Source: Vicugna vicugna
Taxonomy: Eukaryota
Direction: 5' to 3'
NCBI GenBank assembly: GCA_013265495.1
Contig: MU058213.1
Span: 6,836,066 to 6,900,065, forward strand
DNA: 64,000 bases
A program made the position numbers and the translations under genes. Positions 1 to 59,279 of this stretch are shown here, piece by piece (within the stretch, counting starts at the first letter, position 1; the number at the start of each line of letters is the position of its first letter). Under the pieces are notes generated by a model that was given only the letters and a program-made list of their open reading frames with translations, searched no databases and had not been told where the DNA came from.

Positions 1-624
1 GCACCATTGGCACAAACAAGGTCTTTCAAGAACATATTTTGGTCAGAAGACCTGAGTTTGAGTCCTAGTTTTGACACCTTTTACCTAAATGGTTCTGAGC
101 AGGGCTCCCCAGCTCTGTTACCCTTCTCTCAGAGGTGAATAAGGTGCCCTCAATGGCTTAGGGATCAAGTGGGGCAGAGCAGATGAAAGCGTTCTGAAGT
201 GCTGTGCAAACTTAAGTCCTATCACCGTCCATGATGGAAAGTAAAGTAAAAATTGCTATTAAAAAATGGTCCCACCTCAGAGGAATTTAGTCTTAAGCTC
301 TTCAGGACAGACAGCAGACTCGCAGAGGGGAGGTCTGTTTTTCATGCTAGTTGTTAACACCCCAGTTTTCACCGTCTGCCCTCCTGTTGGCAGTGGAAAA
401 GGGGTGCTAAGGTGAAGGAAACTGTTGCTCCTTTTTTCCATATTCTCCCAAAGTGGGCTTTTTCACAGATTTTAAGATAGGATGTTGACAAAGTGTTATT
501 ACAGTTGCTGAAAGGATATGAGAGGAAAGAGTGTGACAGTCTTTTGGGGACACTTTTAGTCTTCTTTGCCCTACCAACCAATGGTAGAAGCTACTTCCCT
601 GCCACTTGAAAAAATTTAATGAAT

Positions 625-810
625 GACTATGTAGTGTTTACCATGTGCCAGGTACTGTTCTAAGTTCTTTACAAATAATAGCTCATTTAATTTAATCCTA
701 ATAACAGCCTTACGAATAGGTGCTTTTTACTATGCCCATTTTACAGATGGGGCTATCGAAGCACAGGTGCCTCACTAATTTGTCCAAGGTTACTTAGCTA
801 GGAAGGAGTA
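625..810 (-). mobile_element. MIR SINE fragment
   Basis: Contains the reverse MIR core 'cccattttacagatgggg...gcacag...tgtccaaggttac' and the 3' part 'ccatgtgccaggtactgttctaag'. Confidence 0.85.
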
Positions 811-1518
811 TCAATGCCCAATAGACTCTCAATGAAAGCTGGTTTAATGGAAGGATACTTGTTACTGAAGGCAGCAGTTCACAAGATTTCCCAGACTCAA
901 GGGCTACGGCAAGCACACCGAGGTCTGCAGACGGAGGAGGAGGGTTACCCTCTGCTGGTTTTAGGCTATCTCAGACACAAGGTGATTTTTGCAGCTGCCA
1001 ATCCAGTAATTCTTTTATTACTTCCCTTAGCCCTCCTAGCTTTGCTGTGAGTTATGATTCACCAAATTGTATTTTCTTCCTAAACAAACTTCTATTTAAC
1101 TTATGTATGTGGAGTGGGAGGTGGGGAAGAGACCACCTTCAATAGAATCAAAAAAAAAACCAAAAACCAAAAAACCCCAATCTTCTATGCTAGCTCACAA
1201 CAATTTTTGACCTTTGATCTCAGTCAGATCAGGTAACAAAAAAGTCACAATGGAACCCTGCTGCTCACCTACCCCTACCCACCAAAAAAGATGGACCTTA
1301 AGGTTTACCCAACCAATCTGGATCCATCCACAATTAACTCGTATCTTTTGGGAATAAAGGCAACCAACTCAGTATGAAATCTAAGCAGGAACGTGTTTGT
1401 GTAGTCAGAAGAAAACTGCCAGTCTACATGTCTTTTTCTTCCTTCCCAGTCTCTGTCAGCTCATAACACGAATCAGAAGGAGGGAAGAAGTACCATTTTG
1501 TACCTCCGATGGGATTTT

Positions 1519-1601
1519 AGAAGAAGAAAAAAAAGAAAGAAAGAAAAGAAGGAAAGGAGGAAGGGAGGGAAAAGGGAAGGGAAGGAAGAAGGAAGGAGAA
1601 C
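1519..1601 (+). repeat. Purine-only (GA-rich) low-complexity tract
   Basis: About 80 nt of almost pure A/G (agaagaagaaaaaaaagaaag...ggaaggagaa). Confidence 0.9.
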
Positions 1602-2974
1602 ACTGATGTAACTTTAGATTTCAGTAAATGTAATTTTGTTTGTTGGTGGTGGAACCAAATGCTGAAAGGGTCAATATTTGGAGTTTTCTGTTAATGGTCA
1701 AACTTATTTAGTAATACTTCCTAAAAATATGCTTGGGTACTCGCATATCTTTTTCAATCTACCAGGAGGCTGGCATTTATATATACTTAAAAATGTGCAT
1801 TTTAAGAAGGTACTATGTCTTTGTGTTTACAGCTCTCGGCCTCCCTCCTGACCACCAGCTTCAGTTACAAGGGACTCCTAGGAAACAGTGTGTTTTCATA
1901 CTTGGGTACTGGTCTCCCAGTTTGCTGTGTGTTCAGTCTCTCAGCCTCTCCCCAACAGAGCTGTGTTTTCTGTATGTGACTGGGCTGGGCTGAGAACGCT
2001 AGTGAAGTTCACTCAAGCCTCTTGGTCAACTCACTCTGGTTTGGTGCTTTGACTTGTCAAACAAGATCAATTGTGTTTATACTCTGTGTTTCTGGCCTCT
2101 CTGCACTGCACATGTCTGCTCCCCCCCCCCCGACTGCAAGAGGTCCTGGGGCTACTCCTCCCATGATCACACTTAGTCCTAGAGTCCCTCCAGCCCACGT
2201 CCTTGTTAAAGACGGGTCCAGTGGCAAAGGTCAGGGTCCTTTTTGCACCTTCTTCCCTTATTTGGTTCTATTTCCATCTGAGTTTCAAAATGCCCATCCA
2301 TGCAGGGCTCAGCCAGTCAACTGCCATCCTCTGGGACTGGTGGCTGTGAAGGTCCATATTCCTTGGCACAGCACGTGGCAAAGGAACAAAGGGAGAAGAT
2401 GCTTTTTAGATGCTAAATAACCTATTAAGGCGATATTCTTATTGTGCCTACATTTACCAACTTCCTTACAGCAAAAATACAATAAAACCTACTACACGTT
2501 GGAGAAAAACTGTTCTGTGATGGTTTCTGCTGCAATTCATTATGCCTGCTTTGCAGAGCGATATTGGGGCACCCTTGCCCCCACCAACTCGGTAACTAGA
2601 AATTCATATGTTGTTGGGCAGGCTGACTCCCAGGACCCTCCCTGAATCTTATAAAAAGTATCTTGTTTTGGAATCAATTCACTTGGTAAGGCAGTAAAAA
2701 AATTTTTTTTAAATTGTTCAAAGCATCATGTGTGTCCTACATGGCTTGTGTTACATGCCACTCATCAGCATAAAAGGGCCTAAACGGATAGATGTAGAAA
2801 GATATTCTTACAAATTACCAAGTTTGGTACTATCTCCTCCCAATAAAATAACGTAGTTTTCCTAAGGGATAGATTAAGATCATGGAATCCAAGATTTAAA
2901 GAGGAGGCATTGAGCAAGACAGTGAAACCCTCTGAGCCTTGGTTTCTTCCTCTAAAAAGTGAGTTATATTAAAC

Positions 2975-3423
2975 ATGTTGAGCTGGTTATTCACCTATCC
3001 TCTCAGCTCCAAATTCAGCTTGTTTTACCTCATTCTGAAATTTGTATTTCCCGAACTCCTTTGCCAGCTGCTTCCTGTGAGTCTCTGCAGACAGGAGGTC
3101 CTAGAGGAACGCTGGAAGGAGGGGGGGGGAGAAGGAACCTCCCTCCTGGCTGCCAGCATTAGCTGGGCAGCACCCCCTTCGCAGGTCCGGGCCTCAGCTC
3201 TCCAGGACCCCTCCTTCACACCCCTAGGCTCTGCCACCTCCCACCCCTTCCTTTCCCAGGGACAGCCGCTTCCTGCAGTTACTACCTTGATGTTTTCCCA
3301 GTGTTCCCTTTTTTGTATGCTCTCAGCCTACCATCACCCATGTAACTGACTCCCTGTATTAAATTTCCTCTTTCTGAAATACGTAGTGTGCTTTCTGTTT
3401 TCCAGACTGAATCCTGAGTAATA
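2975..3423 (+). mobile_element. ERVL solo LTR, LTR33-like
   Basis: The 3' end 'ccctgtattaaatttcctctttctgaaatacgtagtgtgctttctgttttccagactgaatcctgagtaata' matches the LTR33 terminus as I recall it. Confidence 0.7.
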
Positions 3424-6940: not shown

Positions 6941-7105
6941 GGGGTAGGGGTATAGCTCAGTGGTACAGCACGTGCTTAACATGCCCCAGATCCTGGGTTC
7001 AATCCCCAGCATCTCCATTAACAACAACAACAACAACAATTTTTTTTAAATGTTCACCACAATAGTTCAAATATAAAAAAAAATTATTAAAATAAACAAA
7101 AACAA
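6941..7105 (+). mobile_element. tRNA-Ala-derived SINE (camelid Vic-1 type)
   Basis: The head 'ggggtatagctcagtggtacagcacgtgcttaacatg...cctgggttcaatccccagcatctcca' resembles tRNA-Ala-AGC with A and B boxes. It has an A-rich tail and a TSD (aaaaactaggagtgcc / aaaaacctggagtgcc). Confidence 0.92.
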
Positions 7106-20199: not shown

Positions 20200-20335
20200 T
20201 TTTTTTTCACTTTGTTTTTCGGGGAGGGGAGGTAATTAGGTTTATTATTTTTTTTAAATGGACATACTGGCGATTGAACCCAGGACCTCACGCATGCTAG
20301 GCATGCACTCCACCACTGAGCTGTACCCTCCCACC
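20200..20335 (-). mobile_element. tRNA-Ala-derived SINE (Vic-1 type)
   Basis: Reverse tRNA-Ala head ('ttgaacccaggacctcacgcatgctaggcatgcactccaccactgagctgtaccc') with a 'ggaggtaattaggttt' tail. TSD-like attgtaattt / atagtaattt. Confidence 0.92.
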
Positions 20336-39883: not shown

Positions 39884-40309
39884 GATTTGCTGTAACATGG
39901 ATGGAACTGGCGATCATCATTCTAAGTGAAGTAAGCCAAAAAGAGGAAGAAAAATACCATATGATTATCACTTATATGTGGAATCTTAAAAAAAGACACA
40001 AGTGAACTCATTTACAAAACAGAAACAGACTCATAGACATAGAAAACAAACTATGGTTACTGGCGGGGAAAGAGGGGTGGAGGGATAAATTGGGAGCTTG
40101 AGATTTGCAAATACTAACTGCTATATATAAAATGGATAAACAAGATCCTACTGTATAACACAGGGAGCTATATTCAATATCTTGTAGTAACTTATGGTAA
40201 AAAAGAATATGAAAATGAGTATATGTGCATGGATGACTGAAGCATTATGCTGTACACCAGAAATTGACACAACACTGTAAACTGACTATACTTCAATAAA
40301 AAATTTTTT
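39884..40309 (+). mobile_element. L1 3' end (end of ORF2 plus 3' UTR)
   Basis: Contains 'atttgctgtaacatggatggaactgg...gactatacttcaataaaaaa'. TSD-like aaaagataa on both sides. Confidence 0.93.
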
Positions 40310-43472: not shown

Positions 43473-44538
43473 AGAAGAAAGGCAGCCTCTCTTCTCTCCA
43501 GTAATCAGGGTGTCTCCTCGGAAGATTACTTACTCTCTTTGGCATTTTCTCCAAGAGACATCTGAAGAATCTAGACAGCCATGAGGAAAAATCACCTGCT
43601 AATCAGGAACTTAGTTCTGAAAATGGCAATGAAAAGGGGGGGAAAAGACAAAGAAAGTCACATTGCCGACAGGAGGAAAAAAGCCTTTGTGCGACACTCT
43701 GCAAGGTCAGAGGCAAAACACGCAGACACACAGAGGAGAAGAGGCGGGCTCCCAAGTCCTCCCCACAGAAGAGGGCCACTTGCGCGGCAGGTGCTGCGAG
43801 CACGCCTTGTCGGCCTGATTTACACAGGTACACAGAGAATGGTCTGGAGGCTGCGGGCCTGCTCCGCCAAACGCCCATGTGTGCATGAAATTAGAATGTC
43901 AACATCTGATTCATGCTGCCAAGCTGTGACTGTGAAACAAATTATGTCAGTGGGTGGCAATTGCAATATTAGTCTAAGCAGATAACATTTAACTATAAAG
44001 AGACCCCCAGGCCCCCATCTTCCCGCCTTCCGTCCATTATTATTTTAATATCAACAGTGTGAGAACCTAGACGTGATAAAATCTTGAGAAAAAGGAAGAT
44101 GCTTTCTGTGCAGGCCTGGGCCCTGCAGGCAAGGGCTCGTGGTCGGTCAAGGAATACTGGCTCCTTACCCTCTCGTTGGAACTCAGGAGTCAGGTAATGC
44201 AGTGATGGTTTTGACAAACCACCACCACCCACTCAACTGAGTTCAAAGTGGTGGTGCCGTTTGTGGGGTAATCTAAGCCACAATTAAATAATCCTCCTCT
44301 TATAAAGGAAGCCTTTGATTCCGGGGCAGAAGCTAGGAGATTTGTCCTTAAATGCATGTCAGTGTAAAGGAAGTGGTCAAGAGCCTTGAAAGGCAGGGTC
44401 AGCAGATTCTCCCAACTCCCCTCCGGAATTCCATACAAAGTCATTTCGGGAGAGTGAGGTCCACAGAGACGCTGAGGTGCAACCTGTTAGTGTCTCCTCA
44501 ACTGATTTAAGCTGGTGCCTATTTAAAATTCATTTTAA

Positions 44539-44751
44539 TAACTAATATACATAAAATAGACAAACAACAAGTTTGTAGTGTATAGCACAGAGAACTATAT
44601 TCAATATCTTGTAGTAACTTATGGTGGAAAAGGAATACGAAAACGAATATATGTATGTACCTACATGACTCAAGTATTGTGCTATATATGAGAAATTGAT
44701 ACAACATTCTAAGCTGACTATACTTCAATAAAAATATAAAAATAAATAAAA
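44539..44751 (+). mobile_element. L1 3' UTR fragment
   Basis: Contains 'tatagcacagagaactatattcaatatcttgtag...gactatacttcaataaaa'. Confidence 0.92.
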
Positions 44752-45224: not shown

Positions 45225-45657
45225 TCCATCATCCATATATGTACGTATATTCCTTTTCATAATCTTTTTCATTATAGGTTACTACAAGATATTGAATAGA
45301 GCTCCCTGTGCTATACAGTAGGATTCTGTTGTTTATCTGTTTTATGTATAGTAGTTAGTATCTGCAAATCTCAAACTCCCAATTTATCTCTTCCCACTCC
45401 CTTCGCCCCCCCAACCCCCTGCCTCCTCCCGCTCCCGGTAACTGCAAGTTTGCTTTCATGTCTGTGAGTCTCTTTCTGCTTTGTAGGTAAGTTCATTTGT
45501 GTCTTTTTGTTTTTTCTTTTTTTGGATCCCACATAAGTGATATCATATGGTATTTTTCTTTCTCTTTCTGGCTTACTTCACTTAGAATGATGATCTCCAG
45601 ATCCATCTATGTTTCTACAAATGACATTATTTTATTCTTTTTTTATGGATGAGTAGT
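45225..45657 (-). mobile_element. L1 fragment (ORF2 end and part of 3' UTR; terminal part missing)
   Basis: Contains 'ctacaagatattgaatagagctccctgtgctatacagtagg' and 'cttacttcacttagaatgatgatctccag'. Confidence 0.92.
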
Positions 45658-46480
45658 TAGAATTCAATTCTTTTAAATAGATTTCCTATTTGATTTTCAT
45701 CAAATAGGGCTGGCGGGAGAGTGAGGGGGAGAAAAAAACTTTAAAATTTACCAAAGATTCTTCTGACACTGATTTTCTATTACTCCCTTATACCAGACAG
45801 AAAGCAATGCCACGGCAATATGATCAGTAGCTTGATTTCTGAAATTATTTGCCTGATTGGCATATTTCTCAAGACAATATTATTGATCATACTCCTTTCA
45901 TAGCTGGACATAGTATGATATAAACTCACAAAGGTTCAAAACAGGTTTCTCAAAACCAGACGTAGTAGGGCAGGTAGCGACAACATTTCAACTTTGTCTC
46001 CACTCCACGGTTTCATGAAGGTGGGCACCAAACCCACCCTTCTGGCCTCTGCCTACACGTGAAATCCCTTGGCTGAAATACCCTGATTGTCCGAGGGGTT
46101 TGTGAAAAAGCAGCCTCAGTGAAGGGTCTCTGAAACAGATCACTGGACAAGGGGGAGGTCTAAGGAAAAATGCCTGTTTGACTCACCAGTCCAGTCTAGA
46201 GCATTAGCCAGGGCTACTGATGCAGACATGTGTCCTACAGTTGCCACTCCAGCAAGAATTTCCACTTTGAAATCTCCGTCATCCTGAAAACACCCCTGGG
46301 TAAGGCCATATTTCCTTTTCATTCAGATGATGTCAGAGTCTGCCACGTTCACTCTCAAACCCTAGTGTCTTCACAGCCATCTAACGTATCCTGCCGTTCA
46401 TTTCAAAACTATTCACAGACCAAAGAGGGTATTTTCTCTTTATGGGGCAATTGCAGGCTTATAACTTCTGCATCCCCTGA

Positions 46481-46592
46481 GAACCACAGAAGAAAGTTGG
46501 TATTATCGTCAGCAGTGAGCTGTCAGATGCATTTAATGCTTTATTAGGAGAAGTAGGGACAAAACTGCTCTTCTCACTCACTCCAGGACAGC
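46481..46592 (-). repeat. Left arm of a 112-bp long-range inverted repeat (partner 56438-56549)
   Basis: Its reverse complement aligns ungapped to 56438-56549 with 100/112 identities by manual count. Confidence 0.97.
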
Positions 46593-49469
46593 AAAGTAGA
46601 TTTGGGTTCTTCACAGTGCCTGGAATTAACCGTATTCCTTCAGCCAGAGATGTACAAATCAAGAGATCAGAGAATGGAATAAACAATATTTTTGATGTAC
46701 ACAGATTATCAACATGAGAGGAATGACCGTCTGGTCACCCGGGGGGCTTATTCAGTTAACACTTCCACCCCTTAAAGACAATGGTGTGCAATCAATGCAT
46801 ATAGGGCCTTTCAGGCCCGTTGCTAAGTGATACGCAGTGTCAACAGAAAAATGCCGGATGTACAGAGGACAGCTCCCGGCCCGAGAGAGATCAACACCCT
46901 CTGATGATATTTTAAACTTAATTCAGTTCCCGATGAAGATTGTGACAGGTTCCGTGGCTAGAGCAGAAAAGATGTTTGCACTTCAAAATCCGACTTCGTA
47001 AAGTTGCTCTGCTGTGTGCAAAGAGTGTTTAATTTGGTCACGAGTGAATCCTGGCCCAAACAGTAGTTGGTTCAAATAGGAAAAGGCACCCAGCAGGGGT
47101 ATCTTGAATATTCATTTCCTGCAAGGCACAGCGGTCATCTTACACTCTCGGCGTCAGTATCAGAGCTGATCATTTGTCTCAGATTGTCTATGCGTGCTCT
47201 CATTTTTTCATCTCTAAAATCTATTTTAGGAACAGCCCCCTGAAGCCATTTGCAACAGCTTCTTCAGAAATTCTAAAGAAAGGAAAGAAACTTGAATAGG
47301 ATCACATCACCCCATACAACCATGAAAACCTGTTTTGTGGGGCATTCTTGAAACCAGCCCAGAAGCTCTTGAGAGTTTTTGTATTTATTTACCCATTTCT
47401 TTCTCTCCCTTCTCCTTCCCTCAATGGATTTTTATATTCAAATGCAAAAGATTTTCATGTGCACTAAAGACCCATTTATGTATTGGTTTAGAAGATCAGG
47501 CCATGATGTTGAGAAATGCAACTTTTTCATAAACAGATGTTTACAAATTCAGTCTTTGTACCAGGAAAAGCACACTCACCACAAAGGGCCTATTTTCCGT
47601 ATTTGAACACAAAAATCCCTTGGAAAAAACCCTCATGTCTCTAAAGTCCAGGAACCGTTAACCTCAAATACCTCGCCCCTCAAAGCCACCTAACCTTTAA
47701 AGCATTTTCCTAACGAGACACTGGCCGATCCTGCCTGTCCTGGTCTCCCAGGCCTGGAGAGTTGTGTCCACAAGAGGGTGGTGACAGGTACAAGCAATTT
47801 ATTCAATTCAGGATGCTCCATTCTCCGAGCCCAACACAAGCTTTTTAAGAGCCCCAGTCACAGAATTTTCAGCGGGCAGGTTTGTCCTCTTTTGTCCTCG
47901 AGGGTTTGGTCTGTTTGTTAAGCCAGTAAGAGCCCCAGAGCACTCTGTTTGGTGGGCTACAAACTCCTAAAGCGGGAGTGTATCAACGCCAGTGGGGGAA
48001 GGGGAGGGGCTGGCTTCGTGACATTTTTCTTCCTGTCTCATCCCACGAAGCTAATTTTATAGGGTTGTTCCTGTCATGTTGAAGCTACAGGTAGTGAGGG
48101 GGAGACTGAAGGCAGATAAAACCACACAATAGCATTCCCAGGCCTTGCTTCCTCGCCTCACTGAGGGTGGTTTTCTCTCACAGAGGCATTAAAGCATTGT
48201 CAGGGACTGGAGAGGCAGAGCACAGAAACCAGCCCACAAGGGACCACAGTGGCGTTCAGACCACCTGCCACCATCCTCCTAGTCCAGCCCTCTCCCCCTA
48301 CCAGCACTCTGCAATAAAAACCATGCACATTTTTCCAGAGTTTTCAAAGATGGAAAGTGAGGATGTGAGCCCTGGGTTGGCAGAATGAACAAGCAAGGTA
48401 ACGAGGACTCAGCAGAGGCCAGAGGTATTTCTGGATTAATGATCACGTCTGACTCCCGATGGAGGCTCTGTCTCAGCGCTGGGGCAAGGACAAGTGACTG
48501 CTGAGTGCAAGGCAGAAAGAATTTTGCTTTCCAGAATGAGCTGTGGAGCCACCAATAAACATTTATTCATTGAGAGGCGCAAAATGATTATTGATTAATT
48601 GAAGCTGTTCATGGAGAATGATCACAAGTTCTCTACAAAGATGAGCAAGTAGGAATGGGCTAGCATGTCTTCCTTAAATTTCTAATAAAATGAGTTAGAC
48701 CCTAACCATAAATTTATTCCAATAAGCAAATGGCTTTCTCTGTCTCTTCTGAACGTATCCAAAGCATCACACAGGAATTGGTGACCATATTTCAGTCGTG
48801 TTCAGCCTCAGGAAACGGCTGAGCCCTGTGGGCTATTTTAGCACCAACCTTATAATGTGGATAATGCTCTAACTTGGGGCATATCCTGGATCTCTAAATT
48901 TCTGTGTAGGTAAAAGTACTTTTTGTACCATCGTTTGTGACAAAGATCCTAGTTACCGCAGTTGGTTTATCCTGTGTGACGATGATGCCACCTGGAAGGG
49001 AGATGGGTTTTCTGCTTTCCCCTGCAGTGGCAAGGGACTGTGCTAAGCCATTCTTTCTCCTTGTCCCTCTTGTGGCCAACAGGCTACACTGAGAAACAGG
49101 CCATGAAGGCAAAGACCTCAGCAGCTACGGCAACAGAACAAAAGTGATAAGGCCACACTAACAGGAGCCTATGACGTAAAAGCTTTGCTGGCATGAGTGT
49201 TGACCGGCTGACACATCTGCTTAAGCCCAGCAGTTTTAGCAGGTAAAATGCTAGAGCATGCCACGAAACAACACAGCCCGAAGGAAAACAGCCTTGAAAC
49301 AAGTGCAAAATAGAAATTCGATGTTCTTCTATGTAAATATAGAGCCATGAGCACGTACAAATTCATTAAGCTATGAACTAAGCTAGGTTGTCTATTTCCG
49401 GAATTTCCCACCGATACACTTAATATATGTTGGCTCTTTGATCTACTTTCTTTTACACAAGATCACTGC

Positions 49470-49652
49470 TGATCTATGGGTGTCAGCCTTGGTTGTACAT
49501 TAGAATCACATGGAGAACTTTTAAAACTCTGCAGATGCCTTGGCTCCACCCCCAGAATGCTTCAACTGGTCAGGAGTAGAGCCTGAGCAGTGACAGCTGT
49601 CAATGTCAATGGTTGTTAAGTTCCCCCTGGTGACCAGGGGTTGAGAGAGACA
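49470..49652. mobile_element. MER5A DNA transposon
   Basis: Contains 'cagccttggttgtacattagaatcacatggagaacttttaaaa...gatgccttggctccacccccaga'. Confidence 0.8.
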
Positions 49653-50194
49653 GTCACAGATGATTAAGTGGAGGTAGGTGCTGACAGAATAAGCAGAATT
49701 CATGGGAGGAAACCCTAAAAGGGGGAAAACACCATCCATTAATTTCCCCTTTTTCTGTGAATGGAAAAAACAAAAGATACCACTCAATCTCAGCAGTAGA
49801 ACGTCTTTGTTTAGCTCGAAAATTAACGTCTATGAAGCTAGTTGAGACCCATTGACTTAAAGTGACTGGAAAGAGATCCTCCAGAAACTGGAAGGCAGTT
49901 CCAGGCCTTTTGTAGGAAAAGTGCCCAAGATAGGAGTCAAAACACTGGGGAAAATTGGGGGAAGGGAGGAGATGGGGCATCAGGAAAGGCTTCCTGGAAG
50001 AGGAGGTTCTTGACATGAGTCCGGAGGGAAAGGCTTCACAGGGAGCAGCTGTGAATAGGCTGAAGGCAGCTGGTGAGGTACAAGCAGGGAATCCCTTTTC
50101 CAAAGTTTAGGGCTCTTTTCATGAGAAAGAGAAGGAGTATTCCACCTTTTCTTCCTTTTCTACCATTCTTCTCATCTGCTTGCCCACCAGGAAA

Positions 50195-50395
50195 AGTAAA
50201 AAGCTAACATTTACTATTTATTGTGTGCCAGACATTCCAAGAGCTTTCTACTGAAATCCTTTGTGCTTAAATCACTTAATAGTCAAAATAATTCTATGAG
50301 GTAGGTCTTGCAACTATTCCTTTTGTACAGAGGGGGAAACCAAGGCAGAGAGAAATGAAATAACTCACTCAAGATCCGATAGTTGCTAAATGGTC
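50195..50395 (-). mobile_element. MIR fragment
   Basis: Contains 'gctaacatttac...ctatgaggtaggt...ttttgtacagagggggaaaccaaggcagagaga'. Confidence 0.8.
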
Positions 50396-50597
50396 ATTGT
50401 ATTAAACTTTTTGCTCTTTCTGGTTCTTTCTGGTACAGTCATTGGCTGAAGCCACCTCTTCCACCAGCAGCCCAGAGCTCACTGGTGATAAATGTTACTG
50501 TCCAGGAGTTGACCATTTATCATCCAAAACCAGCTGCCCTCTGGAGGTGGCTGATCAAGGGTATCTCATAACAATTTTTTTCATTTCATTCTGAAAA

Positions 50598-50691
50598 ATT
50601 TTTTTTTCTTTTGTAATTGAAGTACTGGGGATTGAGCCCAGGACCTCGTGCACACTAAGCATGTCTCTACCACTGAGCTATACGCACCCCC
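50598..50691 (-). mobile_element. tRNA-Ala-derived SINE (Vic-1 type)
   Basis: Contains 'gtactggggattgagcccaggacctcgtgcacactaagcatgtctctaccactgagctatac', preceded by poly-T. Confidence 0.9.
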
Positions 50692-53411
50692 TGGAGTTGG
50701 AAAAAGATGGAAGACCCACCCAATTACAGTTCAGACAGCATGCTAGGAGGCCCAGTGTCTACCCAGGTTCCACTGAGCACTGGAGCTGCTAAGCCCACAG
50801 CCAAAGAAAGAGAACTCTGGTCCAGTAATTGTCTCTGACCACCCCATCTCACCCTGCCGAGGGTCAGACAGAGGCTCCCTTTTTCTTTTTTCTTTTTAAT
50901 TATAGAGGTGTAGATCATGCATTTTCTTCTCTCTTGAAACTCTCTAAAGCAGCAAGTTATTACAAATGTTGAATAGTGAGTGGCCTTACCTATGGAATCC
51001 AAAGAGCATTTCATCAGTGTTTTTAAGAATGTCCTAGCAAACTGGTATGGCAGAGGCCAACTAAATCTCTATTTTTTTCCCCTCTCATTCAAATCAGTTA
51101 ACACAACTTAACATATATCTACTGAGCACCAACTAGGCCTAGGGTTTCTAAACTGAGTAAAGAGATAACACCATGGCAGAAATTACTGTAACAAAAGGCA
51201 AAGTGAAAAGGATTGCAAGGAAAGTCTCAAAACGCCATGACCATTTGGAGGCAGATGAGAGCAAAGTGGGGATCCTGTAGGGCTGCCTGGAGGAGGCAGT
51301 GCCTAAAATGGACCCTAAATCTGAAGGATTTCAATCAAGAGGCCGGGGGAGGGGTTAAGGGCAGTTAATTCTGTTGAGAGGAGAGCTCCAAGGCCACTAC
51401 TGTCTCGGAGTGGAGGGCCTCGGGCTGCACATTCAGCCCGCAGAAGAACAAAGAAAAGGTTTGCTGCTGACTTCCCAAACTGCACAGGCGGCAGAGTCGG
51501 GGGGCAGGGAAGCTCGAAGGTCGTTTGTTCAAAGTAGCCAATTTACAGTTATGGTTACACTTGAGTCAATTAAAGTGTTTTATTAGCAGGAATTTGAATC
51601 TCTTACCTTCATTAACATTTAACAGTAAATGGGAGAAAAAAGGTAAATAAAATATTATCTGGCTTTTTAAAGGTCATTTCAGACTGAGCATTATAAAATG
51701 CGAGCTGGGGAAGGGCGGGGATGGCCCTTTGTGTGGATTTAGTACATGAGCCGGCTACCCGCGGACGTCTCTAGAGATAGCCCACAGCACCGGGAGCAGG
51801 ACACCTCGCGGCAGGTGAGGTGCTGGAGGTGCATTCATTACAGGCAGCACAACTGGGGCGGCAGGAGGGAAAAAGGGGACCTGACACGTGAGAATGAATT
51901 CTCCGCTTTAGATCTCAGACTGTAAATCACTGAGGGTATGCAGCCCTAAGTAATTACTCCCGTGCTCAACACCTGCTTTTTCACAACTCCAGGCGAGCAG
52001 TCCACATTGATTAAGAGACATACCTAATCCTTCCCCCAAAGGAAATAAACTCAAAGGAAGCCCTGGGCCTGGGTCTCAAGAGTCCACCGAGGGCCCCTGG
52101 GAAGGCCCCGCCACAGTCAGGAGGCAGGTCCTACCTGTGCCCCAGGCGCCCCGGAACTTCTCACGTCAAGGCCTGCTGTTACTGGAAGCCAGACACAGAA
52201 ACACGATCATTTGGCAAGGAGGGAAATGCTCAACCTGAAAAGAAACTTCTAAATTTCTTCATTTTTCCAAAGTGTCAAGCCAGAAGTGATGAGACAGCCA
52301 TCCAAAAGTGGCCCAGTGAAGAGTTCATCCCAACCCATGACCCTCAGGGAGGTTAAGACCTAAAGTGGGGATGCTCAGGTGTCATCTGATCCTGGGAGGG
52401 CAGCAGGAAGCCAAGATGATCCTACAGTTGCGGAAAGGCTTTTCTTGAGATTATTCCTCAGAATGGGTGAACAGAAGGAGCAGACCCACGCCCACCCCGC
52501 CACAGAGGATTTTGAGGTGTCCCTGATGGCTGTCCTCCTTGTCTGAGGTGAAAGCTGTACCTGGATATATAAACCCCAGCAAGTGAGCAGTTTCCCTATG
52601 GAGGTGGCTGTAGAAAGTGCAGTCTTCCTCGAATGAATACGGCTACTGGGTTAAAGCCCCTTCCTGGGCCGCCTTCGTCATCAGGATACTCGATTCTGCT
52701 GCACCCGGAAGTAGGAGGGAAATGAATTCACAACAAAATAAATATTTCCTAATTTTAAATAAATATTGCTAATCCCAGTGATGGCTTACAGAGCACAATG
52801 CAGCTATATCAACATAAAGGACAGAATTAGGAGTGGGGGAAGGATATTTACATACATGAAAATAAATCCAAAGTCTGATTTTAATGGGATAAAAACATCT
52901 AGTCTTGTTCTGTAAATGTCAGAGGTGGCTGCTCGCTGTCCCTCTAGCACCTCCCCAATTAGCAGCTGAGGAGATGGCCTTTCGTTTACCCAAATCCGAA
53001 GGTAAATATCATGGACTTCAGTGCAAAAATGAGGAGGACCTTTTCCTGTTGCATGTAACAAATTCATTTTGCATTTGATTTAGCAAAGACATACAGGAAA
53101 GGCTCCTGGTAAACCAACGCTCTAAATCGCCTTCCCCAGGAGCAATTTCAACCTCATTCCATTCCCTTTTCTTTTTGCAGAGTACACACAAGCAACTTCT
53201 CACCCACCCTAGAAGTATGGGGCTGTTATCAAGCCTGGAAGACCTTCAGTACAGAGGTGTGCAAGGCCACAGTCAAAGGCAGGCAGTGAGACTGTGACCA
53301 CTTTCAATGTCATTCAGAGAAGTTAACATCCTCTGTGATGCATGAGGATATAAAATGTCATGTTGGGTTCCTGATAACCACTGAAACAAGCATCCTTTAA
53401 AAAGTATATTG

Positions 53412-53735
53412 GTATCACTTATATGCAAAATCCCCAAAAAAGGATACAAATGAACTTATTTACAAAACAGGAAGAGACTCACAGACGTAGAAAACAAACT
53501 TACAGTCACCAAAGAGGAAAGGTTGGGGGAGGGATAAATTAGGAGTTGGGGATTAGCGAAGAGAAACTATTATATATAAAACAGATAAACAACAAAGTCC
53601 TAACGTTCAATATCTTGTAATAACCTATAATGAAAACCTATACACACACACACACACACATATCTATGTATAACCAAGTCACTGTGCTGTATACCAGAAA
53701 CTAACACAACAATGTAAATAAACTTCAATTAAAAG
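53412..53735 (+). mobile_element. L1 3' end with internal (CA)n
   Basis: Contains 'gtatcacttatatgc...gggataaattaggagttggggattagc'. TSD aaaaagtatattg / aaaaagtatactg. Confidence 0.92.
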
Positions 53736-54559
53736 AAAAAGTATACTGAACACACAGTAAAAGTCAGGCGGTGTGTTTTTGCCTTAGCAAAGGTCCCCAC
53801 AATTCAGTCCCACGAGAATGGTGTGTGGTAGGTGGTTTTCTCTCAAATGCAGAGAGAGAGCTGTCTGTTCTGGTCACTGTCACACCAGCCTATACCTTCT
53901 TTAATCAATCTCCCCTCTCTCAGAAAGAGAATTTGGAAGTAAGTAAGTGAGATGACCATTTATTCCCACCAATATGAAAAAGCTTTCTCACTCACTCTGG
54001 GTGCATACCACAGACTCACTGAAAGCCAGCACCAGCAGATACCTCAGAGACCTGGACACAGCCCCCAAGAGGCACTGGAAGGAGACAGAGGCCAGTGTAG
54101 CAGTGACTCAGGGAGTAATGTCCCTCAGTGCTGGACCTGTCGCATGCAGGGAAGAGTTAAACTGCCCCACAGAAAAACGATGACCAACCTCCTGCCCCCT
54201 TACTGACTAGGGAGGAAACCCAGGCCCATAGTGGGGCCCTGGACTGAAAGCTTTCAACTCCTAGTTTAGAGACGATAACTGTGTCCATAGTTGAGCAATA
54301 GAGAAGCAATACATTGAAATATACATATAAATGTAGGTACGTTAATGTTGCTTCTGCTTTTTCCTGCACAACCCGCTTCTGTTAACTAATCCTGGAAAGG
54401 CCCATGGCTGTTCCCTGCACCTCTGCCTTCATCTTGAGGCAAATAAAATGAATCCCTTGCAAGAATTCACACTTATCTTTTAGTGTCCTCCCAGGGCTCT
54501 TCCTTAGTATCTGAATTCAGCAGGAAACTTCAAGTAATTCCAAAGAAAGATGTTCTAAT

Positions 54560-54760
54560 TCAACCAAACATTTATTGGACACCTTGTATATGCCAGGCAT
54601 TGGGCTTGGTCAAAACATTATTTCATTTAACTGCAACTCAAAACTATAACTTAATGTACTAAGTCCATTTTACAGTTTCAAAAACTAAGGCTTTGAGTGG
54701 TTTATAAGTTGCTCAAGGCAATTAGTGACTTAGTGATTGACCTTGTGTCAGACCTTGGTG
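54560..54760 (-). mobile_element. MIR fragment
   Basis: Contains 'catttattggacacc...tgccaggcattgggct' and 'ccattttacagtttcaaaaactaaggct'. Confidence 0.7.
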
Positions 54761-54952
54761 TCTCATCAGTCATCACTGGGTTCCCTCCACATCTCTGGTC
54801 CATCACATCTTGGCATCAGCTGCCTCCTTCTCCAAGAATGTAAAGTCACAGAAAGGGCCTTTCAAAGTTTAAGATTTCATCAGGTGGGTGAGTTCTCAGG
54901 AGACAGAAGTCTCAAAGACTCACTGAGACAGAATTTGTAAAAACTCTGGCCA

Positions 54953-55056
54953 GCAGGAGTTACAGTTCAGTCGTAGAGTGCATGCTTGGCATGTATGAGG
55001 AACTGGGTTCAATTCTCACTAACTCCACTAACAAAACAAAAACAAAAACAAAAAAA
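54953..55056 (+). mobile_element. tRNA-Ala-derived SINE (Vic-1 type)
   Basis: Contains 'tacagttcagtcgtagagtgcatgcttggcatgtatgaggaactgggttcaattc' plus an (AAAAAC)n tail. TSD-like ctctggcca / ctctagcca. Confidence 0.88.
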
Positions 55057-56437
55057 TGCTCTAGCCACATTTCCACAAGAAAATGGCAGACTTGTGCATG
55101 TACACACGCGACTTCTTTGCCAAAAACACATCCAAGGGAGCTGAAAGCTCCTGAGAAAGCCTGTGCAACACACACACACACACACACACAGAATTGGTGA
55201 CCTGTGAAGGCATGCAATGGAATCAGAGCAGGGAATAAAAGAATAAACAAAACAAGAGCAGTGTGATTAACTTAATGATCTACTCCTGAGGTTAACATTT
55301 TAAAATGTTTATGGCACTTTAAAAATAGTCTGTGAAAAAGATCCCCAGCAAAGGTGATAAAATCTCTAAACCTCGCAAGAGGTGACGGAAGGTATGAGAA
55401 TTGGCAAGAGGAGGGAGAGATGAACTCTCCCCACTTGCTAAATGGGGAGTCCTCCTTAGGAATTTCGTAATTGCGTGCTCTGGCTGTTCATTAATTGTAA
55501 GGAGAGCATCCTGGCTCCTGCCCCCTTGCCTGCTGGGAGGGCATGACAGAATTACGGACTCATGTGAAGGATGGGCACTGACCAATGGCACCCATCAGAG
55601 TGCCAGACAGTGGGTCTGAGGCGCCAGGTCAGAGATGGCCACCCTGGACCCAGGCTGCATGCAATTAAAAAGTCTGTGTGGAGTCCAAACTGCCCCTCCC
55701 CATCTTATGCATGTCAGGAGACGCTCATTTGAAGCAAAATTCGTAACTGTTTTTCCCTTTCTCTTTAGTTTTAAAACCATCCGTAGAAGTCACATAGCTC
55801 GGCAAGATAAAGAATAAATATCCTATCATCTGGCTACTGTTTAAAGTTGCAAAGGTTTTCCATGACTGTGCTCTAGCCACATTTGTGCAGTGAGCATATG
55901 CACACACACACAAACACACACACAGAGGCAGAGCAAAGACTCTGATGAATGAAAATGTGAATCTGAGGCCAAATGAGGCATGAAACATACTGGCCAATAA
56001 ACAACACAAAAGAAGGTTATACGAAATTTTTTGCCCTAACCAGACTGGGAAGGATTTGAGTTAGAATATCCATCCGGAGAAGACTTTCAAGGAAGTTCCA
56101 TTTCCTTACAAGTACAGAGGACTGGTGTTCATTTACTGGTTATTACTCAGATGTAGAGAGGGAGAGGATCTTACTGGACTGTGTTTTTGAAGGTGAAACT
56201 CTGAGGGTTTATCATATCTAAAAACACATCACCGACCTATCATAAGAAAACTAAACCTGCCTCAAGTACTCCTGTAATCACAGCTCTTTTTTGAAAACAT
56301 CTCCTCCAGGAAGCCCTACGTGCCTAAAGTAGTTTTCAGTCCACAAAGTTCCTTCAAAACCATCTCATAAAGTGGAAAAGGCAGGTATTATTTGCTCCGT
56401 TTCCCCATTTCTCAGAAAGTTCAGGTGAGTTTCTCAA

Positions 56438-56549
56438 GCTGCCCTGGAGTGAGTGACAAGAGCAGTTTTGTCCCTACTTTTCCTGATAAAGCATTAAAAG
56501 CGTCTGACAGCTCACTGCGGACTATAGTGCAAACTTTCTTCTATGGTTC
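56438..56549 (+). repeat. Right arm of the 112-bp long-range inverted repeat (partner 46481-46592)
   Basis: Same alignment as the left arm. It is also visible in the ORF track as near-identical pseudo-peptides (CPGVSDKSSFVPTFPDKALKASDSSL vs CPGVSEKSSFVPTSPNKALNASDSSL). Confidence 0.97.
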
Positions 56550-56754
56550 AAGGTCAGGAGTTGGACAGTCCCACAAGGATCTGTACTCCTGCTTCAGTGC
56601 AGCCCTGCCCATCTGCTAGTCCTGAGGTTTCAAAGAGCCGCTGTGAAATGTGCACGGTTTGGCCCCTGTCGCTTCTGTGTTTGAAGGCAAAGCTGATTCC
56701 AGGAGGCTGCTTTTTCCAGCATTCACCATATCAACCATCCCCTTCCTAAGGGAG

Positions 56755-56950: not shown

Positions 56951-57486
56951 TCCTGCACATTACGCAAAGGTGAAGGCAGAAAAGCACATACTTTAAGGGC
57001 ATGAACAGAAGAGGTCAGGTCAAGCCCAGGGACCCTTGGAGGGGGGCTCCCAGCAGAGTCTCAAACAGAAGGACCCATGAACGTGGACTTTTCTGTGCAT
57101 GGAGGATATCAGAACAAAAAGAACAATGAGAATGAATGTCTCAGAGACTCCTCCACCCCACCCCCACCCACCACATGCACACACAGAAGCACCCAGGGTC
57201 AAAAGAAAACAGATTCTTTCAAGATTCCCAGACCAGTCTGAGCAAAGTGAAAAGGTTTCCAGCCCCTGTTGGATCTGAGAAATACCTGATCCCCACCAGG
57301 CTGAGGTCACCTGGAGCTCCTCGGGGGGCTCTCTGTCTGCACTAATTAGAGAAAGCAATATTGTTTGAAAGCATTCCCTTCATCTGTCTTCCAGCCTTGC
57401 TTTGCTCCCGGATTTGGGCGTTTGCAGGCCCAGGTCCAGTTCACACAGCCGGCCAGCCCTTCAAAGGCGGGGAATCCACACAAGCG

Positions 57487-57505
57487 CATCCAACAGGTGG
57501 CGATG
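57487..57505 (+). promoter_or_regulatory. Candidate CTCF site
   Basis: CATCCAACAGGTGGCGATG closely fits the CTCF core CC(A/G)(C/G)(C/T)AG(A/G)(G/T)GGC. It lies in a CpG-enriched patch. Confidence 0.5.
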
Positions 57506-58170
57506 AGAGACGTGCCTGGACTGTCCTGGCCGGTCCGCGCCGCACCTTCACTTTCATTATCTCCATCATTTGTCAAGCAAAGGCAGGCTGGTGAGCCTTC
57601 TACCTTCAAAAGAAAAACACTGCCTAGACAGTGAGGCTGCCGCTGCCATGACCTCCCCTTCACCTGCTAGACGCCTACAGGGACTCACGCCGTCAAAAGA
57701 CGAGTCGTCGTCAGACTTCTCTCACTGACATCCAGTGGCCCGAGGGAGAGCAAGAGAGATGAAGGGCCAGTCATTGGAGGGGTTATGAACCATGCCGGGA
57801 AACTGGCAAATGCAGAATTAACTTTCTAGGGTACGAACATACAGGCAGCACCAAGCCCCTCAGAAGCTTAAGAAAATATGCTCTCCGAGATGATGGAGTC
57901 CAAAATTCCCCACGAATCTGGCCACTGACGCCACTGGTTAATAACCTCACCTCTTTGAGAAGCTCAGGTCTTCCCCACAGACCCAGAAAATTCCTCTTCC
58001 TAGACTTTAGAAGGATCCCTAAGTTGAGCCAGGGACAAAATGAAGTTCTCACGGCAAGACAATAAGTACAGACCAGACGCAGTGACCAAAGACATACTCT
58101 TTGCATGAGAAAAGGGATGCGGTTCTGTCTGAGGCTCAGCTGATGGGTCTGGTGAACTAGAAAGAAGTTC

Positions 58171-58287
58171 TTTTTGATTCTTTTTGTTGTTGTTGTTAAT
58201 GAAGGTACTGAGGATTGAACTCAGGACCTTGTGCATGCTAAGCAAGCACTCTACCACTGAGCTATATACTCTGCCCTGCCTCTGCCC
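58171..58287 (-). mobile_element. tRNA-Ala-derived SINE (Vic-1 type)
   Basis: Contains 'ggtactgaggattgaactcaggaccttgtgcatgctaagcaagcactctaccactgagctata'. TSD agaaagaagttc. Confidence 0.93.
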
Positions 58288-58300
58288 CAGAAAGAAGTTC

Positions 58301-58505
58301 TTTTTTTTCTTTTTTTAATTGAAGTATAGTTGAATTATAGTGTTGTGATAGTTCCTAGTGTACAGCACAGTGATTCAGTTTATATATATATATTTTTTTT
58401 CGTATTCTTTTCCATTACAGGTTACCACAAGCTATTGAATATAATTCCCTGTGCCATATACAGTAGGATTTGTTGTTTATCTACTTTACACATAATAGTT
58501 TGCAT
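58301..58505 (-). mobile_element. Short L1 3' end
   Basis: Contains 'aattgaagtatagttgaattatagtgttg...ttccctgtgccatatacagtagg'. TSD cagaaagaagttc. Confidence 0.93.
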
Positions 58506-59279
58506 CAGAAAGAAGTTCCTGAGCAGAGCAGAGAGGAAGAGAGAAGGAAGAAGGCAGGGTAGGGTGGGGAGGGGAAGTGTTGTTCTGGTCTTTTTCTTCT
58601 GCTGGCGGGGAGAGGGCTGATCGGAAACTGGAAGGCAGATTTTCCAGTGCCATGGGCAACAGAAATTCTGCTGCCCTGGGTGTTCCTGAATAATGTGCAA
58701 GGACTTGAGCTTGAGTCCGGAGGTGGATCGCAGGGCAGAAGACTAAGATTTGAGTAGAGTTTAGCCCTCTTGTCTTCCTGGTGTTCCCCAGCTCTCTTCC
58801 AGAAGCTTTCTGGAGAATCTCTCGCAGCCACTCTGTTAACCCCAAGAGTCCCATCTCCAAGTCACCTCAACATCTGTCCCTCCCTAAGAGACAAAACTCC
58901 ATCCGGTTCCAAAATTGTTTCTATTCTCAGGTAACATGACTAAAGGCAGCAAAATGTGACCATCCTACAAGTACAGACGTTCCAGCATAGTTATTCTTGC
59001 CGGTCATCTGTATGTAGGGTTTTTTTCCCCCAACAGTTAAAATGTCACCCATTTTTAAAAGTGAGCTTGACAGTTCTGCTCACATAAATGACTGCTTCCC
59101 TCTTGACAAATACCATATCCCAACAGCTTGCTTCTGTGGGAATACAGGGGCTGATCTGCACGGGCATCTCCTCTGAAAAGCAGAGGGCAACATGACTTTG
59201 ATGCTAACTGGCACCGAGAAGCTCTCGGGGTGGTGGGGGTGGAGCACTGTAGTTAGGCATCTTGTTCCTTACAGGTTGG

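Follow-up and report, generated by a model that had tools for sequence, protein, structure and literature searches.

The inverted repeat formed by positions 46481-46592 and 56438-56549 is best explained as a repair-mediated (templated) local duplication that has since decayed neutrally, a reading that we consider probable. The pair lies in a 64,000-nt window (the whole stretch of Vicugna vicugna DNA that was analysed). When the left arm (46481-46592, plus strand, likely the inserted or acceptor copy) was compared with the reverse complement of the right arm (56438-56549, minus strand, likely the template or donor copy), 100 of 112 positions were identical without a gap (BLAST E-value within the window, 5e-36). 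The spacer between them (46593-56437; 9,845 nt) contains an L1 3' end, a tRNA-derived SINE and MIR-like fragments, and a coding exon was not found in it. The match runs along the arms are 6, 11, 1, 1, 3, 3, 16, 2, 13, 4, 22, 14 and 4 nt, and the ungapped 112-bp repeat, its spacer and the perfect blocks of 14, 22, 13 and 16 nt described in the initial annotation were thus all borne out. At the outer end, the homology probably extends about 5 nt further, across a 4-nt indel.

The locus is not an assembly artefact, because 16 DNA-type rows from eight studies (one of them possibly the source) carry 0.90-0.92 of the words of the interval 46400-56399, a query that ends 38 nt before the right arm. 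Two RNA runs contained 0.38 of the interval words, which is about the genome share in their contigs (839 and 937 Mb; 41-46% of the assembly size), and two further runs contained 0.07; these shares carry no weight for or against transcription. An exact 22-mer of the locus gave no match in metagenome contigs, in a weak search from which records of the own genome may be left out.

The whole assembly (2.03 Gb) was searched for the left arm by itself and for either arm extended by about 200 nt of its flanks (E-value cut-off 10), and only the two arms were returned. This search skips very common words and its match counts are lower bounds; three repeat-derived control queries run in the same way gave 40-41 matches listed out of 261-3191 candidates, so that a family at 72-90% identity would have appeared. 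The two-copy status agrees with the earlier statement that no young repeat family was recognised and no third copy seen. At the gathering score, Rfam had four matches in the whole window, all of them heads of tRNA-like SINEs, and none in the arms.

The 12 mismatches consist of seven transitions and five transversions. The bias toward G-U wobbles noted earlier (five on the plus strand against two on the minus strand) was reproduced as a count and is not significant (binomial p=0.45), and pairing-preserving changes are not in excess. Under random mutation, the probability of a longest run of at least 22 nt is 0.63 and that of four runs of at least 13 nt is 0.15. The duplex energy (-178.4 and -170.0 kcal/mol for the two strands) was compared with that of 200 neutral simulations (-178.3 +/- 6.6 kcal/mol; better strand on average -182.5 kcal/mol). 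As G-U bias, perfect blocks and duplex energy all match random mutation, the decay of the arms looks neutral, although with 12 differences these tests have low power. Two repeat-derived inverted pairs stronger than the arms lie beside or across the left arm; for nearby L1 pairs the duplex energies are -434 and -225 kcal/mol. This is a useful caution for genome scans: any inverted copy at 11% neutral divergence will show perfect blocks, a slight preference for G-U and a strongly negative duplex energy.

A very decayed SINE-like sequence (56328-56536, minus strand), which we take to be a MIR, extends over most of the right arm and on across the inner flank; it was detected with a profile built from local copies. 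The profile match (56437-56365) scored 4.0 bits, a value reached by none of 200 shuffles, and its pairwise score of 74 was attained by two of 300 shuffles and by 17 pieces in a background of 600. In a profile search of 264 kb around the window, which also served as background sample, this element was missed at E-values up to 10. The right arm is thus probably, on weak to moderate support, part of a decayed MIR that continues beyond it. The earlier proposal that the arm begins inside such an element probably stands as to the MIR itself, with the correction that the MIR would span most of the arm and pass its edge. The profile had no match in the flanks of the left arm, in line with the earlier remark that they lack MIR-like sequence. 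Because MIR-like sequence runs through the right arm into its inner flank and is absent from the left flank, the right arm is likely to be the template, and this one-sided continuity favours the earlier suggestion that the left arm is a templated inverted copy. Both the MIR origin and the donor polarity are weakly indicated by these matches. Positions 56297-56315 may be L2-like, judging by their look; a search for seeds of an L2 profile gave one match.

The junctions may retain weak traces of the same event. A 5-nt microhomology (CCTGA, 46476-46480, plus strand) recurs in the outer flank of the right arm (56558-56554, minus strand) at an offset of 4 nt (P=0.014 among 20,000 random flank pairs with offsets up to 5, post hoc), and a possible templated filler of 7 nt (AAAGTAG, 46593-46599, plus strand) is also found in the donor arm (P=0.045 among 20,000 random positions, post hoc; weak). 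The 3' microhomology of 3 nt was not significant (P=0.18). No poly(A/T) tail was found at the printed junctions, and the longest direct repeat across the arms was 4 nt (left) and 5 nt (right); a short target-site duplication may have decayed. A DNA end broken near 46480 would have paired, by way of some 5 nt of microhomology, with a sequence 9.8 kb away on the opposite strand, and would then have copied roughly 112-117 nt, for the most part from the 5' portion of an old MIR. Rejoining with a few filler bases would fit synthesis-dependent strand annealing or polymerase-theta-type end joining. We infer that fixation took place roughly 26-41 My ago, with both copies mutating independently afterwards.

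Similar duplicates were found nearby. The 264 kb contain a second local duplicate (51 nt, direct, 84% identity, 1.46 kb apart, with two copies in the assembly) and a third (190 nt, inverted, 98% identity, 1.6 kb apart), whose partner is far closer than any other among the matches listed. A retrocopy of a spliced exon was also rejected: AG and GT do occur close to the ends of the right arm, but the homology of the left arm continues beyond the GT, the splice scores are low (2.8-3.1) and a tail is absent.

An unlikely alternative, missed in the initial annotation, is that the arms mark the two breakpoints of a 9.8-kb inversion. A staggered break at one end would have been filled in between its nicks, which would leave that segment at both breakpoints in opposite orientation and the spacer reversed with respect to the ancestral state. 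When one site has staggered breaks and the other is broken as well, an inverted duplicate is left at both breakpoints, and the shortest duplication on record is 46 bp (PMC1885836). Such an event would account for the fact that the arms are inverted and more than 5 kb apart, and it would also keep the junction shown to be old, where the MIR runs inward from the right arm. The evidence in that source comes from Drosophila, however (PMC1885836), and microhomology and filler fit an insertion equally well or better. When repeat continuity was examined across the joined flanks, neither the insertion joints nor the inversion joints had a match, and hence there is no positive sign of inversion.

The genomic setting bears on the functional readings. 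The arms lie 56-66 kb past a forkhead gene on the plus strand, which we take to be FOXB1, in keeping with gene order (the closest solved chains to its product are FOXA), and the nearest annexin exon was found 219 kb away; on one side the neighbouring gene stops 56 kb short of the arms, and on the other the distance is at least 200 kb. Pfam gave seven matches, all below cut-off, among 399 ORFs of the window (239 of at least 50 aa starting at or after 36000 and 160 of at least 60 aa before it, from 641 of at least 45 aa), a scan of these lengths in which very short or non-coding exons may be missed. A crude exon scorer, run over the 264 kb without a positive control, gave three candidates above 20, of which the one in the window (57397-57588) had no Pfam match. 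The premise that the arms are intronic is unsupported, because they are far from the flanking genes and no coding exon was found in the window by these searches. A duplicated coding exon was also rejected: frames are open in the left arm and one is stopped in the right arm, and for the ORFs at the two arms Pfam gave nothing above cut-off.

The FOXB1-like gene encodes a developmental transcription factor and has a large CpG-island domain, and the arms lie in the gene-poor interval 3' of it. That one or both copies of a duplicated MIR-derived element are putative distal enhancers of this gene would suit such a position but is very unlikely. Among the donors of repair-mediated duplications (RDs), 22 of 824 carried predicted binding sites and 82 of 824 conserved elements (PMC2671141), which lends the idea some precedent. 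Against it, the divergence of the arms looks neutral, and the literature on FOXB1 enhancers or lncRNAs, as surveyed from listings, makes no mention of the element.

It is likewise very doubtful that the pair acts as an RNA bridge on a candidate plus-strand transcript (FOXB1 read-through or lncRNA). Here the repair copy of the MIR head would, on a slim chance, have created a lineage-specific element downstream of FOXB1; its duplex, about 105/112 paired, might conceivably promote back-splicing, cause a MIR-derived microexon to be skipped or become a substrate for ADAR editing, and the switch to back-splicing or exon skipping, in itself a long shot, would come from the position of the duplex next to a microexon donor and a left acceptor. 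Toward the spacer, the left arm carries a 3' splice-site-like sequence (46567-46587, plus strand; AG at 46585-46586) that scores 6.7 (P=0.032 for a 61-nt stretch) and whose pyrimidine tract falls within the predicted duplex. In the antisense MIR-like sequence, a 9-nt microexon-like unit (56416-56424) is followed by a consensus 5' splice site (whole feature 56416-56430, plus strand) whose GT at 56425 lies 13 nt before the right arm, at its inner edge; acceptor and donor score 7.7 and 8.1 (post hoc), and the pair is unique in 264 kb on both strands. All these scores come from crude matrices, with thresholds derived from the present case. The inner-edge splice-like signals of both arms, which had gone unnoticed, are rarer than chance by this crude test.

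In favour of such a bridge, the donor at 56425 is the only plus-strand donor scoring at least 7.5 in 46400-56700, the acceptor-like site at 46587 brings the combined crude p to about 7e-4 for two strands, and none of 28 other inverted pairs within 20 kb reached both scores. The splice-like signals, the FOXB1-like gene and the non-significant G-U bias all share the plus strand. On the other side, an antisense MIR carries such signals by descent: the local consensus acceptor scores 7.0, and two of 64 local MIR copies reached the acceptor score of 7.7 and two of 64 the donor score. The best acceptor outside the duplex scores 0.8 (P=0.28), no plus-strand donor scoring above 3 was found in 46587-47100, mismatches lack a pairing-preserving excess, nearby L1 pairs fold more strongly, a host gene was not found and the splice test was post hoc with thresholds set on the case itself. 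Back-splicing of ciRS-7 is reported to require inverted MIRs (bioRxiv 10.1101/411231), which is a further point for the bridge. With no coding gene found over the arms, and with pattern and energy as under neutral decay, the maintained bridge of the initial annotation is unsupported, and the neutral inverted micro-duplication that it offered as the other choice is the better reading, backed by the two-copy status and the mismatch pattern.

That a low-copy transposable element, not recognised as such, inserted twice independently is extremely unlikely and already largely refuted, even if the lower-bound search counts and the probable MIR derivation of the arm would give the idea some room: the assembly has two matches, against hundreds to thousands of candidates for the repeat controls, independent MIR copies are far less alike than 89% ungapped identity, and target-site duplication and tail are absent.

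Most likely, then, the event was an ordinary old repair copy in a gene-poor stretch, decaying neutrally and probably without function. Read in this way it is of little importance, because short repair duplicates number hundreds per surveyed mammalian genome and two more lie within 150 kb. If the splice-site lead were true, a repair accident would have given rise to a functional long-range element in RNA, next to a regulator of development, and a true bridge would be a dated example of DNA repair inventing a long-range splicing element. An inverted spacer would represent a small mammalian staggered-break inversion and also a lineage marker.

Several known systems resemble the pair in part. In ciRS-7/CDR1as, as described in bioRxiv 10.1101/411231, inverted MIR-derived arms likewise contain splice-site-like sequences; those MIRs are independent of each other, are shared by human and mouse through conservation and lie on either side of an exon known to be expressed, whereas here one arm was probably copied later from the other, the loop measures 9.8 kb and the transcript is hypothetical. 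The conserved long-range RNA duplexes termed PCCRs share complementarity at less than 10,000 nt and a very low duplex energy, but both arms of a PCCR lie in conserved parts of introns of one protein-coding gene, and no such host gene was found in the ORFs of the window or its flanks. Unlike conserved PCCRs, the present pair has an estimated age that suggests a single lineage. In staggered-break inversions (Ranz et al. 2007, PMC1885836), short inverted duplicates also bracket a segment; these were described in Drosophila, and the present spacer has no sign of inversion.

The closest likeness is to RDs. The 112-nt arms are short, two-copy (two matches in 2.03 Gb, above the 50-bp minimum for an RD with a single other genomic place), non-tandem (9,845 nt apart, where more than 50 bp is required) and close together on one contig, with candidate microhomology and filler at the junctions and no poly(A/T) tail or target-site duplication found there. 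The 'doublets' of Thomas et al., as cited by Pace et al. 2009, are a likeness of the same order. According to Pace, Sen, Batzer and Feschotte (2009; PMC2671141), RDs have a median length of 147 bp, to which the present 112 nt come close, and are marked by microhomology, filler and the lack of a tail, their divergence tracked the neutral rate, and cow and dog have them as well (0.20-0.22 per Mb of TE DNA). One inverted case, at ACSBG2, is described, and among 1,136 human duplicons only 58 had a same-chromosome partner at a distance of more than 5 kb (PMC2671141). The present acceptor differs in that it does not interrupt a recognisable TE. Because its arms are 9.8 kb apart, past the confident 5-kb cut-off for a proximal donor, the pair falls in the 'distant' class and was filed as RD-like rather than as a proximal RD.

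In a BLAST comparison, the left arm (46481-46592, plus strand) matched the reverse complement of the right arm (56438-56549) at 100 of 112 positions without gaps (E-value 5e-36), and the two arms were separated by 9,845 nt, exactly as the initial annotation had described. The lengths of the perfect runs and the G-U counts were recomputed with the same values. When the whole 2.03-Gb assembly was queried with the left arm by itself, and also with either arm extended by its flanks, the two arms were the only matches, while three repeat-derived control queries had 40-41 listed matches each in the same search. Thus, the inverted pair was confirmed as real and, within the sensitivity that this search offers, as two-copy. 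No Rfam family matched either arm. The interval 46400-56399 was present in 16 DNA-type rows of eight studies, one of them possibly the source data. No report on this element was found in the literature covered, which excludes most subscription journals.

A SINE profile was trained on 64 local copies, with the neighbourhoods of both arms left out, and we take its consensus to be MIR. In the right arm's inner flank, the profile matched 56437-56365 (minus strand) at 4.0 bits, a score equalled by none of 200 shuffles; this match was not reported in a profile search of 264 kb (the window and its surrounding DNA) at E≤10. A pairwise alignment with the consensus extended from about 56536 to 56328, spanning most of the right arm and crossing its inner edge, and scores as good were obtained by 17 of 600 pieces of background DNA and by 2 of 300 shuffles. 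On the left-arm side, the alignment score was at background level (129/600). Because MIR-like sequence crosses the inner edge of the right arm and the left side is at background, the right arm is probably the original. The alignments suggest, weakly to moderately, that this arm probably represents the 5' portion of a MIR, now decayed but still in place. The divergence between the arms was 0.116 (K2P; JC interval 0.059-0.205). At a yearly rate per site of 2.2e-9 (as in PMC2671141) or 1.4e-9 (from 7e-9 per 5-year generation; PMC7331169), the age of the copy comes to 26-41 My (bounds 13-73 My). As camel and cattle diverged 55-60 My ago (PMC3514880), the inverted copy is probably lineage-specific, with an upper age bound that overlaps this split.

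The junctions were also analyzed. CCTGA is common to both outer flanks with a 4-nt offset (P=0.014), the inner ends share a microhomology of 3 nt (P=0.18), and the 7 nt right after the left copy recur in the donor arm (P=0.045). Neither a target-site duplication (the longest direct repeat was 4 nt) nor a tail was found at the junctions. The best explanation, which we hold with good confidence, is a neutral inverted copy like those made by repair-mediated duplication (RD), and such a duplication would have been followed by neutral decay. A 9.8-kb inversion in which one end was broken in a staggered way, with an inverted duplicate left at both ends, is an unlikely alternative. It would leave the same picture (PMC1885836) and would likewise keep the MIR junction on the right arm's inward side. 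No repeat was found to bridge either of the two ancestral joints that could be postulated.

The differences between the arms consist of seven transitions and five transversions, and the G-U split of 5:2 gave p=0.45. When the 12 mismatches were placed at random in 20,000 trials, a run of at least 22 nt was present in 63 % and four runs of at least 13 nt in 15 %. The predicted duplex energy was -178.4 kcal/mol on the plus strand and -170.0 kcal/mol on the minus strand, and 200 neutral simulations gave -178.3 ± 6.6 kcal/mol, with a mean of -182.5 kcal/mol for the better strand. Nothing suggests selection for retained pairing, at the low power that 12 sites provide. L1 3'-end fragments in both orientations (39885-40303, 44536-44751, 45229-45657, 53413-53740 and 58298-58506) form several inverted pairs in the window, 0.6-9 kb apart, two of them with a predicted duplex stronger than that of the arms: 39885-40230/45239-45622 (-434 kcal/mol) and 45266-45508/53438-53636 (-225 kcal/mol). 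Because of these two pairs, the arm pair is not the strongest duplex the region would form if transcribed. Four further repeat pairs gave weaker duplexes (-85 to -121 kcal/mol).

An intact forkhead-box coding sequence is located on the plus strand of the surrounding DNA (pieces L011:9681 to L012:655), stops about 9.3 kb short of the window and lies inside a CpG-island domain that measures about 14 kb (L010:8000 to L012:2000). BNIP2-family exons are found 280 kb upstream of this gene, and minus-strand annexin exons start 219 kb past the right arm. From protein sequence and the BNIP2 - forkhead - annexin order, as in human 15q22, we take the two genes to be FOXB1-like and ANXA2. The arms, 56 and 66 kb beyond the FOXB1-like stop codon, sit between the convergent ends of two genes, outside any known intron. 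Among 399 window ORFs of at least 50-60 aa, no Pfam match was over the cut-off. The sole window candidate from a crude exon scorer (57397-57588, plus strand; score 25.7) has no Pfam match and is probably due to chance. Four Rfam tRNA matches (6946-7017, 20259-20328, 54956-55027 and 58200-58271) were rejected as tRNA genes. It is because they are similar to each other and to a fifth copy at about 50600-50690, as heads of a tRNA-derived SINE family.

Splice-site-like signals were scored post hoc, as one of about ten features examined, using crude matrices. A consensus donor on the plus strand (CAG/GTGAGT, GT at 56425), 13 nt ahead of the right arm, is the sole plus-strand donor scoring at least 7.5 within 46400-56700, and an acceptor-like site (AG at 46585-46586, score 6.7) is found at the left arm's inner end. 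Their crude joint probability was about 7e-4 for two strands, and none of 28 other inverted pairs within 20 kb reached both scores. The donor also closes a microexon-like unit in antisense MIR-like sequence (56395-56430 region, plus strand), in which an acceptor (7.7) is followed by 9 bases; no other such unit exists in the 264 kb, and the alignment indicates that a 20-nt deletion in the right-arm MIR copy brought acceptor and donor together. The left-arm site is followed 91 nt on by AATAAA (46678), with no donor above 3 in 46587-47100; this short terminal exon layout may be chance.

The donor and acceptor placement is the geometry of repeat-driven back-splicing, which inverted MIRs drive at ciRS-7 (bioRxiv 10.1101/411231). 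The RNA bridge earlier proposed for the arms would nevertheless be very improbable. Besides the post hoc nature of the test, antisense MIR inherits such sites: an acceptor in the local consensus scores 7.0, and the acceptor score of 7.7 and the donor score are each reached by 2 of 64 copies. FGB provides a documented case of an antisense MIR that became exonised (PMC4615370). In addition, the duplex would bury the pyrimidine tract of the left acceptor, outside the duplex no acceptor scores higher than 0.8, and the locus has no known host transcript. Unlike the conserved complementary pairs of PMC8052449, the arms lack a known host intron. Two RNA runs contained 0.38 of the 46400-56399 words, which is close to the fraction of the genome that their contigs cover. 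An enhancer duplicate is similarly hard to credit. An unrecognised TE, given two copies in the assembly, is least credible.

An all-against-all comparison of the 264 kb gave 10 locally two-copy pairs, including the arms. Among three other pairs less than 5 kb apart, one was two-copy assembly-wide and two were dispersed repeats; the remaining six (12-143 kb apart, 66-78 % identity) were two-copy within the 264 kb. The close pair that is two-copy assembly-wide is a 51-nt direct duplicate with 84 % identity (L003:5381-5431; G000:C1645:6742958-6743008, on the contig of the arms), with its other copy about 1.46 kb downstream; it is a typical doublet or proximal RD. An inverted duplicate of 190 nt with 98 % identity (L008:8406-8595 / L009:196-383, 1.6 kb apart, some 40 kb ahead of the window) consists of a tRNA-derived SINE and tail, and its partner is far nearer than other assembly matches. 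This inverted copy is young and local and may still be polymorphic; a 15-nt match at its edge hints at junction homology. Local duplicates in the 264 kb number three with the arms included, two of them inverted, and 12 partly overlapping inverted BLAST pairs were at least 60 nt long and at most 10 kb apart.

RDs are described with a mean length of 162 bp (median 147 bp) and with junctions that have microhomology of 2-9 nt, filler of 1-68 nt and no poly(A/T); 824 were counted in human and 202 in cow, and 58 of 1,136 human duplicons were intrachromosomal beyond 5 kb (PMC2671141). The arms resemble these RDs or doublets in copy number, non-tandem arrangement and lack of a tail. However, they are 9.8 kb apart, beyond the 5-kb cut-off of that paper, and were therefore labelled RD-like and not proximal RD.
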